Of a DNA stretch of 64,000 nucleotides, positions 1,819-59,100 are shown one piece after another; position 1 is the first letter of the stretch, and each line of letters opens with the position of its first letter. Position numbers and translations under genes: made by a program. Source of the stretch: a virus. Taxonomy: Duplodnaviria; Caudoviricetes. The stretch lies in IMG/VR virus record IMGVR_UViG_3300032321_002024, positions 32,001 to 96,000 of that record; one strand, written 5' to 3'. Under the pieces are notes generated by a model, which was given only the letters and a program-made list of their open reading frames with translations, did no database searches and was not told the DNA's origin.

Positions 1819-2085
1819 TTACTTTTTTAAAAAAATTCTAAGTATTTTTTTTATTCTTCTATAATTTTTTGGTGGTGTATAAATGGAAGAATCAACATCT
1901 CTTATATAAACACCTGGGCTTATATACTTATTACCCATTTTTCCTATGTTATTTTGTTGTGTTTCATTATCTATATGAGCATTGGCATACTGAGACATCC
2001 AGTCAGCTTTTGATCCAGTCATACCCATAGAGCCTAAAATATTAGACCACTTTTTCATTATATCTTTCTTACTTGGTTGTTTCAT
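1819..2085 (-). CDS. Chimeric mini-protein: capsid-N-terminus-like + tail-sheath-N-terminus-like segments + RxxKI tag
   Basis: KKWSNILGSMG...WMSQYANAH, then YISPGVYIRDVD (sheath SPGVY motif), then RRIKKILRIF. Confidence 0.55.
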   Translation of the reverse strand: MKQPSKKDIMKKWSNILGSMGMTGSKADWMSQYANAHIDNETQQNNIGKMGNKYISPGVYIRDVDSSIYTPPKNYRRIKKILRIFLKK

Positions 2086-14808: not shown

Positions 14809-16335
14809 ATGCTTGTAGAAACGCAATATCTATCAAATAGTAAAAAGTTAGTAGTAAGTTATGTTGATAAAACAGGTGATATCAAACTCAAATACTACAA
14901 TTGGGATAATCCCATGAAATATGTAGCTTGTGATGATACTGATGTTCAGAAACATCCAACATTTCGTTCTTGGGATGGTAAATCAGTTAAACAAATTGAA
15001 GTTAATCATCCAGATAGGTATGCAATATATGAGTTTCTCGATTCTTTACCACAAAAAGAAAGAGAAGAAATTTTTGAATTTAATCTACCGAAAATTTATT
15101 TTATAGATATTGAAACTGAAATCGTTGATGGTTTTCCAGAAGCAGCTGATATAAAAGATGCTGCTGGTAATGTCATTAAAGAAGGAGCTTGTACACAAGT
15201 TCTTTCTATTTCAATTGTTTATGATGATAAAATCATACTTCTTGGGTTAAAAGATATGCCTGAAGACATGCAGGAAAGAATTAAAGATAATACTAATAAG
15301 TATTTTGAAAAATTTGGTTCTGATTATAAATTCAAATATGTCAAATACGAAGATGAGTTTGATATGTTATATGCTTTCTTTTATAAGATGGTTCCTAAAA
15401 TGCCACTTCTTACTGGTTGGAACTTCTTGAAATATGACTGGTTGTATTTAGTTAATAGATCTCGTAAAATTAGTAAGTGGGTTAATGGTAAAGAATATAA
15501 AATTGATCCAGCTGTATCATCATTGACAAAAAGAATAACTAAAGCATGGGGAACAGAGTACGAAGTTCCAGCTCATAGAATGATTTTTGATTATATGCAA
15601 CTTTATGAGATTTGCGATACATCTATTAAAGTAAAAGAATCTTCTTCATTGGACTTTGTTTCTAATAAGCTTGTGGGTGTTGAGAAGATTAAATATACTG
15701 GTTCACTTCAAAAACTTTATGAAGATGATTTTGAAACATTTATGTATTACAACGCGGTCGATTCCGTGTTGGTTCAAAAGATACACGAAGCTAGAAACTA
15801 TATCTCTATCATATATGCGATATCATCACTTGCCCAAATTAGAATAGTTGATGTTGTTTCTCAGATGAACAATGCTCTTGGATCACTTGCGATTACAGAA
15901 GGTGTTTTAAGAAATAGATTCCGAGAGATGGATAATATAGTTCTTTTTAGAGATGAAAAGGGAGATGCTGAGTCAACAATTGCTGGTGGTTGGGTAAAGG
16001 ATCCAGTAGTTGGTATGAATCAGTGGTGTGTCACTTATGACTTTGCTTCACTTTATCCAACAACACAGCGTCAATTCTTTATTGCTCCTGAGACATTTAT
16101 TGGTTTACAAGATGAAAAAGATAAATCAAAGTGCACAAATGGTAGAAAAATTGATTCTCAAAAACACGTTCTTTGTGTAAATGGTGTTGTATTTGAAAAA
16201 AGAATTTCACCAACTCTGAATATGCTTGAAGATGTTTATGCTGATAGAAAGAAGAATAAAAAAATCATGATGCAAAAGAAAGAAGAGTTAAAAGAAGTCA
16301 TGGATGAAATAAAAAGATTAGAAGCGGAATTATAA
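14809..16335 (+). CDS. Family B DNA polymerase, N-terminal subunit (exonuclease + motif A; split gp43A-like)
   Basis: DIETE (ExoI), GWNFLKYD (ExoII), YNAVDS (ExoIII), DFASLYP (motif A); ends after first fingers helix, no KxxxNSxYG or DTDS. Confidence 0.9.
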   Translation: MLVETQYLSNSKKLVVSYVDKTGDIKLKYYNWDNPMKYVACDDTDVQKHPTFRSWDGKSVKQIEVNHPDRYAIYEFLDSLPQKEREEIFEFNLPKIYFIDIETEIVDGFPEAADIKDAAGNVIKEGACTQVLSISIVYDDKIILLGLKDMPEDMQERIKDNTNKYFEKFGSDYKFKYVKYEDEFDMLYAFFYKMVPKMPLLTGWNFLKYDWLYLVNRSRKISKWVNGKEYKIDPAVSSLTKRITKAWGTEYEVPAHRMIFDYMQLYEICDTSIKVKESSSLDFVSNKLVGVEKIKYTGSLQKLYEDDFETFMYYNAVDSVLVQKIHEARNYISIIYAISSLAQIRIVDVVSQMNNALGSLAITEGVLRNRFREMDNIVLFRDEKGDAESTIAGGWVKDPVVGMNQWCVTYDFASLYPTTQRQFFIAPETFIGLQDEKDKSKCTNGRKIDSQKHVLCVNGVVFEKRISPTLNMLEDVYADRKKNKKIMMQKKEELKEVMDEIKRLEAEL

Positions 16336-20319: not shown

Positions 20320-21987
20320 ATGTCGTTAAAAAATGATCTCTCAAAATACAAACCTCGTAAAGAACAAAAAGAGGCTTTAGATTTTATCGATTCTGAATAT
20401 CAGAAGAATAAATTAACAAAATTTTTCTTACTTAATTTACCAGTCGGTTCTGGTAAAAGTCACTTAGCACTTATGATCGCTGATTGGTATCGTAAAAATG
20501 TAACAAAAATGTCTAGAGTTGACATTATTACAAATTCTAAAATTTTACAAGACCAATACGCTGATACTTATGAGTCAATTGCTGATTTAAAAGGTAAAGA
20601 AAATTATGAATGTGAATCATATTCTTGTTCTTGTGCTCAGGGTGGTGAATTCAATAGATTAAATAAGACTTCTTGTGAGAGTTGTCCTTATTCATTTGCT
20701 CGAGAAAATTATATCTCTGGTGGAATATCACTTACAAATTTTTACCTTTATATCCTTTATGCTATCTATAATCCAAAATTAATGGAAAATAGAGGAGCTA
20801 GAGTTTTAATCGTTGATGAAGCTCATGATTTTGATGATGTTATGTCAGATTTTATCTCAATTAAAATAACAGATAATGTTGTTAAGAAATTTAAATTCTC
20901 AAATGAATATGATATTTTAAAAAAATTGAAAAGTGTTAATTCAATTTCAGATTATGTTGAGTTCTTAAGATACCTGAATAGTGAAATTATCACAACTACT
21001 GAAGATATGGAAAGAGGTATGTCATCTGCTCCAAGAAATATAAAGTCAGATAAAAGAGATTTAAAAATATCTAAAGTTCTTAAAACAAAAAACACTGATG
21101 TTAAAGTTATGAACTTAGTTACTGATTTGAAACAGTATCAATTAAAAATTGATGTATTTTTGAAAGAATATAAAGACAATCCTAATAACTGGGTATTGGA
21201 GTCTAGTTGGAATGAGAAGATGAAAAGTAAAGAGTTATCACTTGAGCCTATCTGGGCTTATGATTACTTAGATAAATATATCTTTTCAAATTATGATATG
21301 GTGTTTTTAATGTCTGGAACTATTTTAGATAAAAATCTTTTCTGTCAATTGAATGGACTTGATGTGACAAAGGCATCATATTATTCAATAGCTTCTCCTT
21401 TTCCTTTAAAAAATAGACCTATTTATTATATGCCAATTGGGAAAATGTCATTTAAATCTAAAGAAGATACTTTTAAAAGATATGTTCCTTACATACAAAA
21501 GTTATTAGATAAATATAAAAAGAAAAAGGGTATCATACACACTAACTCTTTTGAATTAGCAAAATGGATAGAAGACTCGATAAAAGACCCAAGATTGGTT
21601 TTTCACGATTCTTCTAATAAAGATGAGGTATTAAGAATGCATATGGAATCAGAAGAACCTACAGTTATTGTAAGTCCTTCTATGGATACTGGTGTTAGTT
21701 TTGATAATGATAGTGCTAGATTTCAAATCATTGCAAAGGTTCCTTATCCTTCATTAGCTTCTCAGAAAAATAAAATGAGACAAATGAATAATCCTGATTG
21801 GTATTCTTGGAAAACAGTTTCTGGTTTAATTCAAATGACTGGAAGGCCTGTTCGTTCAGATAAAGACTATGCTGATACAATTATTATTGATGGTGGATTT
21901 GGTGATGTTATAAAACACTCTTCTCAATTCTTACCTGATTGGATTCAGGAAGCTATTAAGAAAGTAAATGTAAAAGTAGGAGCATAA
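20320..21987 (+). CDS. DinG/YoaA-like SF2 helicase (Fe-S)
   Basis: PVGSGKS, Cys cluster, DEAH, MSGT, KVPYP, QMTGRPVRS. Confidence 0.9.
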   Translation: MSLKNDLSKYKPRKEQKEALDFIDSEYQKNKLTKFFLLNLPVGSGKSHLALMIADWYRKNVTKMSRVDIITNSKILQDQYADTYESIADLKGKENYECESYSCSCAQGGEFNRLNKTSCESCPYSFARENYISGGISLTNFYLYILYAIYNPKLMENRGARVLIVDEAHDFDDVMSDFISIKITDNVVKKFKFSNEYDILKKLKSVNSISDYVEFLRYLNSEIITTTEDMERGMSSAPRNIKSDKRDLKISKVLKTKNTDVKVMNLVTDLKQYQLKIDVFLKEYKDNPNNWVLESSWNEKMKSKELSLEPIWAYDYLDKYIFSNYDMVFLMSGTILDKNLFCQLNGLDVTKASYYSIASPFPLKNRPIYYMPIGKMSFKSKEDTFKRYVPYIQKLLDKYKKKKGIIHTNSFELAKWIEDSIKDPRLVFHDSSNKDEVLRMHMESEEPTVIVSPSMDTGVSFDNDSARFQIIAKVPYPSLASQKNKMRQMNNPDWYSWKTVSGLIQMTGRPVRSDKDYADTIIIDGGFGDVIKHSSQFLPDWIQEAIKKVNVKVGA

Positions 21988-22028: not shown

Positions 22029-22556
22029 TTATTTCTTTTTATTCTTTGCTTCAATTGCTTTTCTAAGACCCTCTGGAAGTTTCTTTTGTGCGGCAGTTAA
22101 ACCTTTACCGCCTTTTTCTTCCTCTTTTTTATCTTCACCTTTTTTATCTTCTTCTTTTTTACCCTTTTTATTTTCTATTGCCGCAGCAATAAAGTCACCT
22201 TTTGTAATTTTATCTTTTGGTGGATATTTAGCTGCAAGTTCTTTTTCTTTTTCATTTTTAGGAGTTTTACCTTTTGCGTTCTTTTTAGCTTCAAACTGTT
22301 TGAATGAAACAACTCTTTCTACATAGATATTCTCATCACCCCAAGTTTTTGTAGGTTCTTCTGAAGGATCTTCATCTTCATCTTCACAAGGTGCACAATA
22401 TTCATCACCTTCCTCATCTCTTTCTTCTTCTGAGTAAATATCTCCAGTTTCGTCTCCAGTAGGTTCATTTAGTTCTAATGGTGTGATTTCTTCTTCTTCT
22501 GGTGTTGAAAATCTATGACCTAAATCATATTCTTCAAATTTTCTAAGGTGTTTCAT
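22029..22556 (-). CDS. Putative internal/core protein, acidic N-half and Lys-rich C-half
   Basis: MKHLRKFEEY; second motif VVSFKQFE; KGLTAAQKKLP. Confidence 0.6.
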   Translation of the reverse strand: MKHLRKFEEYDLGHRFSTPEEEEITPLELNEPTGDETGDIYSEEERDEEGDEYCAPCEDEDEDPSEEPTKTWGDENIYVERVVSFKQFEAKKNAKGKTPKNEKEKELAAKYPPKDKITKGDFIAAAIENKKGKKEEDKKGEDKKEEEKGGKGLTAAQKKLPEGLRKAIEAKNKKK

Positions 22557-39956: not shown

Positions 39957-40637
39957 TTAATCCATTTTCTCAAACCACCAATTAAAGTAAATATAGTTAT
40001 CACCTACTAAGTTATAGACATTAGATTCGTATCGAATTACTAACTTTTCGTCATAAGCTCTTACTAATTCAATTTCGATACCTTGTTCCATTTTAAGAAG
40101 TTTTCCAGTTTCTTGTGAATAACAAATTACTTCATCGTTAAGAAGTCTATACATACCTGGTTCTGGTTTTAACCACTCTTTAATTGTTTTAATTACTAAA
40201 CCTTTAATTTTTATTGTCCATTCGATTGGTTGATAAAGGTCCATATCTTTAAATAATTCTGACGTGAAATCGGTGTTTTGACCCAAGATATCTTCAACAA
40301 CACCCCAATAGTCGTCATCATCTATTGTAACAACAACATAACAGTCATACTTTATACCATTTTTAATAATCTTTTGAATTTTTAAGTTTTGTATATCTTG
40401 TTTTTCAAGAGCTAATTTACTTCTTAATTGAGAATAAGCAGTAGTTCCTTTAACATTCATTAAAATGTCTGTGATTCTTGACATCGCTGCTCTAATCGCA
40501 TCTTGATGTTTATCAAAAGCATCTATACTCAATTTTGGATCATCAACGTGAACTGATGCCTGAGCTGAGTCTGGATTAAAACGCTGTAGGTTGAATTCAG
40601 TGAACTCGAGGATAAGATGTTTATTTCTACGTTTCAT
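39957..40637 (-). CDS. Hypothetical protein with N-terminal signal
   Basis: ...LILEFTEF; behind palindromic TATATA element. Confidence 0.7.
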   Translation of the reverse strand: MKRRNKHLILEFTEFNLQRFNPDSAQASVHVDDPKLSIDAFDKHQDAIRAAMSRITDILMNVKGTTAYSQLRSKLALEKQDIQNLKIQKIIKNGIKYDCYVVVTIDDDDYWGVVEDILGQNTDFTSELFKDMDLYQPIEWTIKIKGLVIKTIKEWLKPEPGMYRLLNDEVICYSQETGKLLKMEQGIEIELVRAYDEKLVIRYESNVYNLVGDNYIYFNWWFEKMD

Positions 40638-40659
40638 AATTTAATATATATATTAAATT
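40638..40659. promoter_or_regulatory. Palindromic bidirectional putative late promoter
   Basis: Perfect palindrome AATTTAATATATATATTAAATT between divergent genes. Confidence 0.55.
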
Positions 40660-40673
40660 TTAAAATTCATTCT

Positions 40674-40991
40674 ATGAGAATAAAAAGATTTAATGAATCT
40701 GAAGAAGTTGATATTTCAACTGAAAGAATCGATGAGATAGTTAAAGAATTAAATGAGATTTCTGCATCTATAAAAGATAAGAATAAAACCATTGAATCTT
40801 TGAATAGTGAATTTAATAATTATGTAAGTGATTCTCAAAAAGGTAATGACCAAATAGACGATTCGATATTTGCGTTACAAGTAATCAAAAAGAATTTAGA
40901 TGATACTCAGGATAAGATAGATACGATATTGCAAAATATGAAGAGCTATACTGATGAGGGTAGAAAATACTTATATACCGAAAACAAATAA
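40674..40991 (+). CDS. Coiled-coil protein with N-terminal signal
   Basis: MRIKRFNESEE (ATG 40674). Confidence 0.7.
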   Translation: MRIKRFNESEEVDISTERIDEIVKELNEISASIKDKNKTIESLNSEFNNYVSDSQKGNDQIDDSIFALQVIKKNLDDTQDKIDTILQNMKSYTDEGRKYLYTENK

Positions 40992-41014: not shown

Positions 41015-41218
41015 GTGAAAAAGTATAAAGTTAAGAGTCTTGTAGTTGATAGTATCAACAATGTATCTTCATATGGTGTAGATATAGAATCCGAACTTAC
41101 TAAAATTTTATCTGAACAAATAGCAAAAGAAATGGATAGAGATATTCTAAGATATTTAGGTGTTGAGCCTGATAGAAATAAACGTAGAATTAATTCCATA
41201 AATAAAATATTCATATGA
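41015..41218 (+). CDS. Mini-protein resembling gp23 major capsid central helix + tag
   Basis: YGVDIESELTKILSEQIAKEMDRDILRYL; ends RRINSINKIF. Confidence 0.6.
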   Translation: MKKYKVKSLVVDSINNVSSYGVDIESELTKILSEQIAKEMDRDILRYLGVEPDRNKRRINSINKIFI

Positions 41219-41784
41219 AAGATATAATCGTTGTAGAGAATATATTTGATGGATCTGATGTTACTGCTGATGAATTCAACTCAATAATTATTAAAAAAAT
41301 TAAAACTCACCCTGGTTGGCATTTAAGTGGTGATGAGCAAATTGAGAAAAAAGATATAGATTCTGATTTGTCTGACACTGGAATGTTACTTCAGTCTTTT
41401 TTTAGAATTCCTAGTCATGATTTTAATTATCACTCTGAAATAAACTCATTAGCTGATATGATATTTCAGCAGATACAAAGTAAATTACCAATTAAGTTTA
41501 CAAAAATAGAACCTGTTAGATTTCTTTGGAACTATTACAATCGATCGTCTACTGGTGTTATTCATAGAGATATGAGTGAGAAAACAGAAGGAAATTTTTG
41601 CAGTATAGTTTATCACTTAAATGATAGTGATGGTGAAACAGTTATTGAAGATAATTTTATAAAATCTAAGTCTGGTCAGTGTGTTGTTTTTGATTCAAAA
41701 AGAATACATCATGGCACTGGTCCAAAAGAATATAAAAGTAGATATTGTTTAAATATCATGTTTAAATATGAAAATATAATTTGA
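41215..41784 (+). CDS. 2OG-Fe(II) oxygenase
   Basis: HRD...YHLNDSDG...FDSKRIHHG...R.CLN. Confidence 0.85.
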   Translation: MKDIIVVENIFDGSDVTADEFNSIIIKKIKTHPGWHLSGDEQIEKKDIDSDLSDTGMLLQSFFRIPSHDFNYHSEINSLADMIFQQIQSKLPIKFTKIEPVRFLWNYYNRSSTGVIHRDMSEKTEGNFCSIVYHLNDSDGETVIEDNFIKSKSGQCVVFDSKRIHHGTGPKEYKSRYCLNIMFKYENII

Positions 41785-41785
41785 T

Positions 41786-41956
41786 ATGTTTGTCAATCCT
41801 AATAAATTAAATTCTTATCGTAAAGTTTTACGTGGTATTGAAGATAATAATAATGATATTCAAGCAACCTGGACTTTACTTAGATCTATGATAAGAAAAC
41901 AAAAAATCGAAAGAATATATGGAACAAAAAATACAGATAGGAAAGAAAAGTTCTGA
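41786..41956 (+). CDS. Small tagged protein (56 aa, not in ORF track)
   Basis: MFVNPNKLNSYRKVLRGIEDNNNDIQATWTLLRSMIRKQKIERIYG... Confidence 0.55.
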   Translation: MFVNPNKLNSYRKVLRGIEDNNNDIQATWTLLRSMIRKQKIERIYGTKNTDRKEKF

Positions 41957-42191
41957 CTTAGAACCAGGTTATGTTTATGTTCCTTATATCCCAATGACAA
42001 CATCACAAGTTATAGTTGATTATGGTTCTAAAAATATAAGTAGAAAAAGAAAGATTAATAAAATATTTGATTTAGGTTTAGATGTTAAAGATGAATTCTC
42101 ACCAAGTAAATCAATTATGAGTAGATACTCTAAAAAGATAGTGAATAGTAAATATTACGGAACTATAGAAATAAAAAAACCCACTTATTAA
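41919..42191 (+). CDS. Mini-protein resembling gp23 major capsid C-terminus with inserted tag
   Basis: IGKK...EPGYVYVPYIPM...[SRKRKINKIF]...FSPSKSIMSRYSKKIVNSKYYGTI. Confidence 0.65.
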   Translation: MEQKIQIGKKSSDLEPGYVYVPYIPMTTSQVIVDYGSKNISRKRKINKIFDLGLDVKDEFSPSKSIMSRYSKKIVNSKYYGTIEIKKPTY

Positions 42192-42204
42192 GTGGGTTTT
42201 TAGT

Positions 42205-42887: not shown

Positions 42888-43271
42888 ATGAGTTATATTA
42901 AAAAATATCAAAGATTTGTGGAAGAGTTTGTGATGGATACAGAAACAAAACCATCTACGCCAATAACTACTCCAGATACTCCGACAAGACCAAGACCAAC
43001 TCGTCCAGGAATCACTCCAACTGAAGTTCCTTCTGAAGAAGATGCTCCATTGGCTTATGGAACTGAAACAAAACCATCTACGCCAATAACTACTCCAGAT
43101 ACTCCGACAAGACCGAGACCAACTCGTCCAGGAATTACTCCAACAGAAGTTCCTTCGGAAGAAGATGCTCCATTAGCGGCTGCTAAAGAAGTTATGGATA
43201 GACTACAAAGAGTTTACTCAGAAGCAACAAAAGAAGAAAAAGATAAAATCGATTCTTACTTTGAAAAATAA
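42888..43271 (+). CDS. Pro/Thr-rich protein with N-terminal signal and duplicated 41-aa unit
   Basis: MSYIKKYQRFVEE. Confidence 0.7.
   Translation: MSYIKKYQRFVEEFVMDTETKPSTPITTPDTPTRPRPTRPGITPTEVPSEEDAPLAYGTETKPSTPITTPDTPTRPRPTRPGITPTEVPSEEDAPLAAAKEVMDRLQRVYSEATKEEKDKIDSYFEK
42939..43177 (+). repeat. Two-copy 123-bp tandem duplication
   Basis: GAAACAAAACCATCTACG at 42942 and 43065; differences mostly synonymous. Confidence 0.9.
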
Positions 43272-58328: not shown

Positions 58329-58928
58329 ATGAATATATGGTTTACATCAGACAGTCATTACGGACATACAAATATAGCGGGTCCTAAAGTTTCTCGCTGG
58401 CAAAGAGGTTATCGTGATTTTAATAGTGTTTGGGAAATGAATCAATCTCTTATTGATTGTATTAACAAATATGTTAAAGAAGATGATATACTTTATCACT
58501 TAGGTGATTGGAGTTTTGGTGGAATTCACAATATCAAATTATTTAGAGATTCGATTATTTGTCAAAATATACATCTTATTTTAGGAAACCACGATGAACA
58601 TATTGTAGACAAAGAAGTAAAATTTCACGATTCATCATTTAATCCAATTGAACTATTTTCTTCTGTTCAGGATGTTCTACATTTAGAAATAGGTAAAACA
58701 AAAATATTCCTATCACATTATTCACATCGTGTTTGGAATGGAAGTCATAAAGGAGTAATTCATCTTTATGGTCATAGCCATGGTTCTATTCCAGACTTTG
58801 GTCGTTCAATGGATGTTGGAGTTGATGTTGCTTATAGAATGTTTGGAGAATATCGACCATTTAACATAGGAGATATTACCAGAATTATGGATAAAAGAGA
58901 AATTCATCAAATTGACCATCATGCATAA
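58329..58928 (+). CDS. Calcineurin-like metallophosphoesterase
   Basis: SDSHYGH, LGD, GNHD, YGHSH; ATG 58329 after TATATTTG. Confidence 0.9.
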   Translation: MNIWFTSDSHYGHTNIAGPKVSRWQRGYRDFNSVWEMNQSLIDCINKYVKEDDILYHLGDWSFGGIHNIKLFRDSIICQNIHLILGNHDEHIVDKEVKFHDSSFNPIELFSSVQDVLHLEIGKTKIFLSHYSHRVWNGSHKGVIHLYGHSHGSIPDFGRSMDVGVDVAYRMFGEYRPFNIGDITRIMDKREIHQIDHHA

Positions 58929-59100
58929 ATTAAGAAATGAAATGATGAATCTGAAAATTATGATTAATTCCTCTTATGGCATGAGTGGGGTTAGTCTGAG
59001 TCTTTATGATGAAATGTTAAAGAAAAAGAATAAGTTTTTCAAAATACAAAATAGAGTTTTTAAAGTTAAAAGAGTATTCAATGATAATAAAAACAAATGA
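58921..59100 (+). CDS. Mini-protein with PolB motif B + tag
   Basis: LKIMINSSYG; ends NRVFKVKRVF. Confidence 0.6.
   Translation: MHKLRNEMMNLKIMINSSYGMSGVSLSLYDEMLKKKNKFFKIQNRVFKVKRVFNDNKNK

Follow-up and report, generated by a model that had tools for sequence, protein, structure and literature searches.

Tagged miniature proteins carrying conserved capsid blocks in a clade of giant freshwater phages

Two small open reading frames in a 64,000-nucleotide stretch of phage DNA, called the window here, encode proteins that resemble pieces of a gp23-type major capsid protein joined to a common short helix. Are they the remains of a capsid gene or working proteins, and if the latter, what might they do? 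The window is part of a record (G000) of 262.6 kb with 30% GC and 84% completeness, from a clade of giant, uncultured freshwater phages. A 634,780-bp record, LR745206, belongs to the same clade and has the same capsid type and a homologue of the first of the two proteins. TAnnTTTG, the promoter element of Bacteroidota, stands at operon heads and agrees with a Bacteroidota host. Both ORFs, their lengths and the peptides quoted from them in the original prediction are present as claimed.

ORF A (41015..41218, + strand) starts with GTG and encodes 67 amino acids. Its capsid-like block at residues 20-48 (41072..41158, +) corresponds to about residues 284-310 of T4 gp23, read as the spine helix, and a tag of the basic subtype follows at residues 58-66 near the C-terminus (41186..41212, +; NG86 dN/dS 0.26). 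A matches positions 165-195 of the Pfam Gp23 model (PF07068) at E 5.4e-6, which passes the curated cut-off, and also matches PHROG 138. ORF B (41919..42191, +) encodes 90 amino acids and carries a C-terminal gp23 block in two parts, residues 4-33 (41928..42017, +) and residues 60-85 (42096..42173, +), the latter identical to the consensus of bS21-type phage capsids at 14 of 24 positions. Between them a tag, again of the basic subtype, occupies residues 42-50 (42042..42068, +) within an insertion of about 22 residues. Alone, B reaches E 0.002 against Pfam Gp23 positions 308-335, under the cut-off; against a profile built from 12 full capsid proteins it aligns as two collinear blocks flanking the tag, with an E-value of 2.8e-18. 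These values bear out the gp23 homology first proposed for the pair. Alignment via T4 gp23 equates B with about residues 436-480, which would place its tag at the tip of a P-domain hairpin; on this mapping, we take both A and B to be P-domain pieces. The AF2 model of A contains helices at residues 19-48 and 54-66 (mean pLDDT 78, pTM 0.44), and in that of B (pLDDT 50) only the tag helix is predicted, with no fold otherwise. Searches of the PDB by sequence and fold gave weak gp24 matches only for A and nothing for B, and Foldseek returned no match for either.

One explanation for such pieces is debris or the parts of a split capsid gene, and it draws on the finding that no full capsid gene is present in the 84%-complete record. 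However, the record lacks the whole capsid, protease-scaffold and portal region of a 385-kb relative with which it is syntenic; it starts at the relative's position 47 kb, and the region lies in the part of the relative absent from the record. A capsid gene of 557-590 aa plus several fragments is found in each of five relatives, and all three relatives that are at least 95% complete have a full gene and fragments, with the true capsid gene in the head module by the protease/scaffold and the fragments elsewhere. The full-length capsid gene sought by the original prediction has therefore been located in relatives and is absent from the record itself. Furthermore, a third tagged capsid fragment outside the window, ORF C (G000:134247-134447, L001 1423-1623, − strand; Pfam Gp23 E 4e-7), has a block that overlaps the block of A. 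The overlap of pieces and the full gene in three of three near-complete relatives lead us to reject a split capsid gene.

Selection argues in the same direction. Codon models, run on 4-10 sequences with synonymous sites partly saturated, give omega values of 0.14 for A, 0.30 for B and 0.25 for C, compared with 0.04 for the neighbouring gene; in all four cases omega=1 is rejected (2 x delta lnL of 74, 59 and 26 for A, B and C). Conservation is higher at positions agreeing with the capsid consensus than at the rest, both in A (0.94 vs 0.78, p 0.008) and in B (0.95 vs 0.84, p 0.016). The DNA loci examined are intact; the protein searches, which cover called genes only, find 199 close homologues of A and 354 of B, all of nearly constant length. 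A profile of A extends to 182 clusters at 50% identity, in which 99 of 128 short new ones are tag-terminated, and the A design is kept in more than 100 such clusters. Pseudogene debris is rejected on the intact frames, the selection tests and the hundreds of constant-length relatives, and debris of either kind retains a very slight probability. The original contention that this is no broken capsid gene stands, and the neutral decay that would have spoken against it is not seen. Nor are A and B simply members of the gp23 family (PF07068). A, B and C share homology with the family's conserved blocks, and they differ from it in being shorter than 100 aa (67 and 90 aa for A and B) with no full-length HK97-fold chain, in lying outside the head module, in carrying the tag and in existing beside a full capsid gene.

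The DNA of B was also considered as a structured or antisense RNA. Both candidates are rejected: folding is no stronger than in synonymous shuffles, compensatory pairs occur in the terminator only, and DNA identity to other capsid genes is only about 75%. As a separate observation, codons 39-88 of B (window 42033-42182) show synonymous differences of 0.10-0.44 of saturation among ten relatives, compared with 0.72 in the first block of B and 0.67-0.87 in the neighbouring gene. This stretch gives no RNA-structure signal, and its low divergence may stem from recent gene flow or from a hidden DNA element.

The run of genes that ends with B is headed by a conserved gene of 105 aa, counted from its second ATG (40617..40991, +), with the motif AATATATA at 40643. 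The position of B is the same in 10 of 10 relatives compared, ahead of a bidirectional terminator hairpin that overlaps its end (42175..42201, no strand assigned) and shows compensatory stem changes. Upstream of B is a slot with up to three small tagged genes, or none, or with an unrelated enzyme. This slot contains A in three lineages; in others A lies elsewhere, so that A and B are adjacent in only some relatives; A and B are thus library members and no fixed or obligate pair. In the window the enzyme is a 2OG-Fe(II) oxygenase-like gene (41215..41784, +; Pfam PF13640 E 3e-5, below cut-off), which is confined to near-identical genomes and absent from all more distant relatives examined; it is a passenger in a variable slot, outside the system. 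An oxygenase had been described as separating A from B, and it does, on a weak Pfam match. A third tagged mini-ORF of 56 aa (41786..41956, +; tag 41894-41920) also lies between them, however, and the order is lineage-specific. No core-protein piece is recognisable in this mini-ORF, and a homologue of it sits between A and B in L014. Farther downstream, window 42888-43271 encodes a protein of 127 aa in which a Pro/Thr-rich unit of about 40 residues is duplicated.

The tag follows the pattern R-[DENK]-x-K-[IL]-x-x-[IL]-[LF], of which this genome has 22 C-terminal copies compared with 0.74 in shuffles (maximum 3 of 200), and one relative has 38 tag-terminated proteins compared with 0.94 by chance. 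The shared helix noticed originally, appended in A and inserted in B, is thereby confirmed. Five genomes carry it on 281 proteins of 185 families, near the C-terminus in 243; about 10-19% of genes, or roughly one protein in eight, bear it, and no protein is known to read it. In two bS21-type genomes it is all but missing (1/354 and 0/248). The helix is amphipathic and serves as a modular label on proteins, placed at the end or within the chain, as is seen from the B-like block of LR745206, in which the tag is terminal rather than internal. Codons at tag positions resemble background apart from a mild ATA excess, which makes the tag a peptide signal and rules out a DNA element. An origin as the C-terminus of the phage's own scaffold found no match, and a search of the ESM Atlas with the tag gave no usable match.

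Could the tag be all that matters, as a competitor for its partner or a signal for degradation or localisation, with the capsid block a mere carrier helix? The 185 families are mostly unrelated, and the tag is also conserved internally, in 5/5 genomes, in a 555-aa protein (window 20320-21987) that is helicase-like by its motifs. The capsid block is nevertheless conserved itself (NG86 0.25-0.33), most of all at consensus positions, and recurs under other tags; we consider a tag-only role very unlikely. In T4, a capsid targeting sequence at the N-terminus of internal proteins loads them into virions. The tag resembles it in marking many small, unrelated proteins with a single short label, and differs in being mostly C-terminal and in existing alongside a separate, virion-type N-terminal motif. 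The tagged proteins do not look like internal virion proteins of the T4 kind, for only 1 of the 281 has this N-terminal motif, and AATATATA lies directly upstream of 5/281 tagged genes compared with 54/101 genes with the motif. That second label, M-K-x-[ILV]-K-x-F-[EN], was observed at the N-terminus of about 100 proteins in the five genomes, linked to an upstream AATATATA; examples at window 13729, 22029-22556, 29763 and 43280 have the look of a capsid targeting sequence.

A and B are members of a scattered library of proteins of 40-90 aa that is kept by selection, each combining a single conserved T4-like core-protein block with the shared helix. The core pieces represent at least five capsid regions, the terminase Walker A motif (PHROG E 0.003) and the head protease (E 5e-4); pieces of sheath, PolB, helicase and gp32 are assigned by motif resemblance only. 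The basic subtype of the tag, ending in F, is found on 25/29 core-protein pieces compared with 26/252 other tagged proteins. A tagged 88-aa protein (1819..2085, −) combines a capsid N-terminus-like piece (capsid profile E 5.9e-6) with a sheath N-arm-like piece, the latter by motif only. A tagged 66-aa protein with the terminase Walker A block (G000:156438-156638, L062 4438-4638, +) is present in 5/5 genomes, and a tagged mini-ORF at 58921..59100 (+) has a PolB motif-B-like peptide, a motif resemblance for which Pfam and PHROG give no support. The system is not dedicated to capsid mimics, as had been proposed: recognisable core-protein pieces account for only about 10 of the 185 tagged families, and more than 90% have none. 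NCBIfam, Pfam and PHROG searches of 198 tagged proteins found no named anti-defence family.

The spine-helix block also exists apart from this tag. A separate family (P0330, P0331, P0355, P0373, P0375, P0384, P0387, P0389 and L290 419-927) carries it with an F-K-F-F-x-G label on one end or on both. An unrelated 519-kb phage has a self-like copy of 130 aa without the tag (L390 1360-1752, −), and a bS21-type phage has an untagged mini-copy, a weak match (L244 1483-1686, −). A gene neighbouring the F-K-F-F-x-G family was seen to begin with a similar label.

Longer tagged proteins were observed among the relatives. Those at L050 1138-1578, L051 1210-1629 and L042 1477-1974 are 139-165 aa long and derive from the capsid N-terminus, and in them the tag interrupts the stretch aligned with T4 Gol. 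Larger, degenerate capsid paralogues with an acidic tag occur at about 250 aa (L039 and L048, a family closer to the own capsid) and about 260 aa (L032, L045 and L047); none was seen in this record.

The fragments were compared with own and foreign capsids, as the original prediction had called for. The own capsid is here that of the relatives, 72-81% identical among themselves, since the record is without its capsid gene. Identity over all blocks is 24-27% to the own capsid, compared with 41-50% to bS21-type and 40-49% to Immutovirus-type capsids (40-50% for other phages' capsids overall). The block of A shares 18 of 27 residues with the consensus of 80 bS21-type capsids and 5 of 27 with the own-clade capsid; for C the counts are 15/37 and 7/37. 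Other library members are own-like. In a capsid tree the fragments lie along the very long stem that leads to the own-clade capsid (bootstrap 98); a position within the bS21 group is rejected (p-AU 0.025), and a grouping of fragments with own capsid is not. A specific bS21-phage donor, to which the best matches pointed, is not upheld by the tree, and capture from another phage is for the same reason not demonstrated. The fragments may be relics of an ancestral own capsid; the safe statement is that selection kept a consensus-like sequence that the real capsid has since lost.

This pattern bears on two explanations. The fragments could be dominant-negative poisons of competing Bacteroidota phages, their blocks entering capsid subunits that are folding or assembling, the tag removing the complex and the own capsid being spared through its divergence. 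Matches of A, B and C to bS21-type capsids score 37-40 bits, and those to own-clade proteins 9-14. The bS21-type phages have bS21 opposite their capsid gene, the layout of Bacteroidetes-infecting bS21 phages (PMC9723584), and metagenome 3300032288 contains both phage kinds, which points to a shared habitat. Satellites likewise use mimics of capsid or scaffold proteins to disrupt the assembly of another phage, such as Ccm of SaPIbov5 (PMC8569155) and the SaPI proteins Rcm and CpmB (PMC12409344). Ccm is a satellite-encoded capsid homologue that forms pentamers, and none of the three shares a common tag; A and B, unlike these, are tagged, and are short pieces in an autonomous giant phage rather than whole homologues. 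Against the poisons also stand the own-like library members, the self-like copy in the unrelated phage and the rejected bS21 nesting; nearly equal identity to bS21-type and Immutovirus-type capsids implies that no single rival is tracked, and frequent co-infection would be required. We hold this account, the main rival to the reading preferred below, to be unlikely.

Alternatively, capsid relics could modulate the phage's own morphogenesis by titrating chaperonin, protease or scaffold or by linking them to the tag partner. The best tree, with the fragments on the own-clade stem, agrees with this, as does the phage-type motif at the head of the run that contains A and B. Present identity to the own capsid is low, however, the own-stem tree could come from long-branch attraction, and library members come and go between genomes. 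Late-type heads precede 7/29 core pieces compared with 27/252 others (p 0.06), an enrichment that is not significant. A role in morphogenesis therefore appears decidedly improbable.

The best reading, held tentatively, is that A and B are bait-plus-tag decoys against host proteins that sense phage or bind capsids. Core phage proteins, which cannot readily change, are often what bacterial immunity senses, and capsid, terminase and head protease are of the class sensed by bacterial receptors (PMC13581612). In the proposed mechanism one common partner likely reads the helix, which would make each mini-protein a two-part adaptor of bait and handle. As a best guess, the bait would engage host proteins, immune sensors or capsid-binding factors, whose ligands are conserved phage motifs, and the handle would hold, relocate or destroy the bound protein, so that the real capsid escapes sensing. 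One possible destination may be the phage's own ClpS, ClpP and ClpC-type ATPase (G000:2125-2409, 179559-180125 and 223845-225974), the last with a short acidic N-terminus and no Clp N-domain among the matches listed; the link is weak, because tag-free bS21-type phages have a similar ATPase. A host target is favoured because the library samples core proteins read by bacterial receptors, because it mixes own-like and non-own-like pieces, and because the block recurs in the unrelated 519-kb phage in a self-like form that is easier to reconcile with a host target than with a rival phage. The precedent is DSAD1 of phage SPbeta, which mimics the tail-tube trigger and thereby blocks DSR2 (PMC10973363), a small phage protein imitating a host-sensed virion protein; by sequence comparison, A and B likewise resemble a conserved virion protein. 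Purifying selection on block and tag, strongest at consensus positions, and the same block under the F-K-F-F-x-G label lend further support to decoys.

Several findings weaken the decoy reading, for which the analysis turned up no candidate sensor and no partner of the tag. Avs7, 8 and 10 bind the folded capsid A-domain across broad surfaces, and A and B, P-domain pieces on the mapping above of which B is not predicted by AF2 to fold, offer no such surface; the only sensors to fit would be those that read short motifs, as Lit or CapRel do. A decoy that shields the own capsid might well be closer to it in sequence than these fragments are, a mimic could trigger a sensor instead of blocking it, and most tagged families have no recognisable core piece. 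In T4, a 29-residue conserved piece of gp23, Gol, is bound by a host protein and sensed through Lit (PMC3014915). Gol is matched in the tagged family of the relatives, and differs in being part of an intact capsid protein and in triggering defence; A and B come from other regions. A broader proposal, to which we give about even chances, is a modular bait-and-handle system in which one hub, possibly a protease route, reads the genome-wide tag, and core-motif mimics capture host sensors or rival-phage proteins, with the same design under other tags in other giant-phage lineages.

The bait-plus-tag design is real, selected and undescribed, and it falls within no known family. As the original prediction had supposed, no paper describing it was found in the largely open-access literature searched. 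If the mechanism is true, tagged motif mimics would form a programmable library, serving as a general counter-measure or as a general inter-phage weapon of an undescribed kind. Each bait would be a ready probe for new sensors in Bacteroidota; the genes are tiny, and the comparison capsids come from a cultured Flavobacterium phage group.

Two minor observations concern other genes of the clade. The family B polymerase is split: the window encodes one part at 14809-16335, and a relative has a separate second subunit of 477 aa with motifs B and C (G003:317542-318975), found by pattern search in that relative only. Finally, relatives G001 and G002 encode the ribosomal protein bS21 (L247 and L249) far from the capsid gene.
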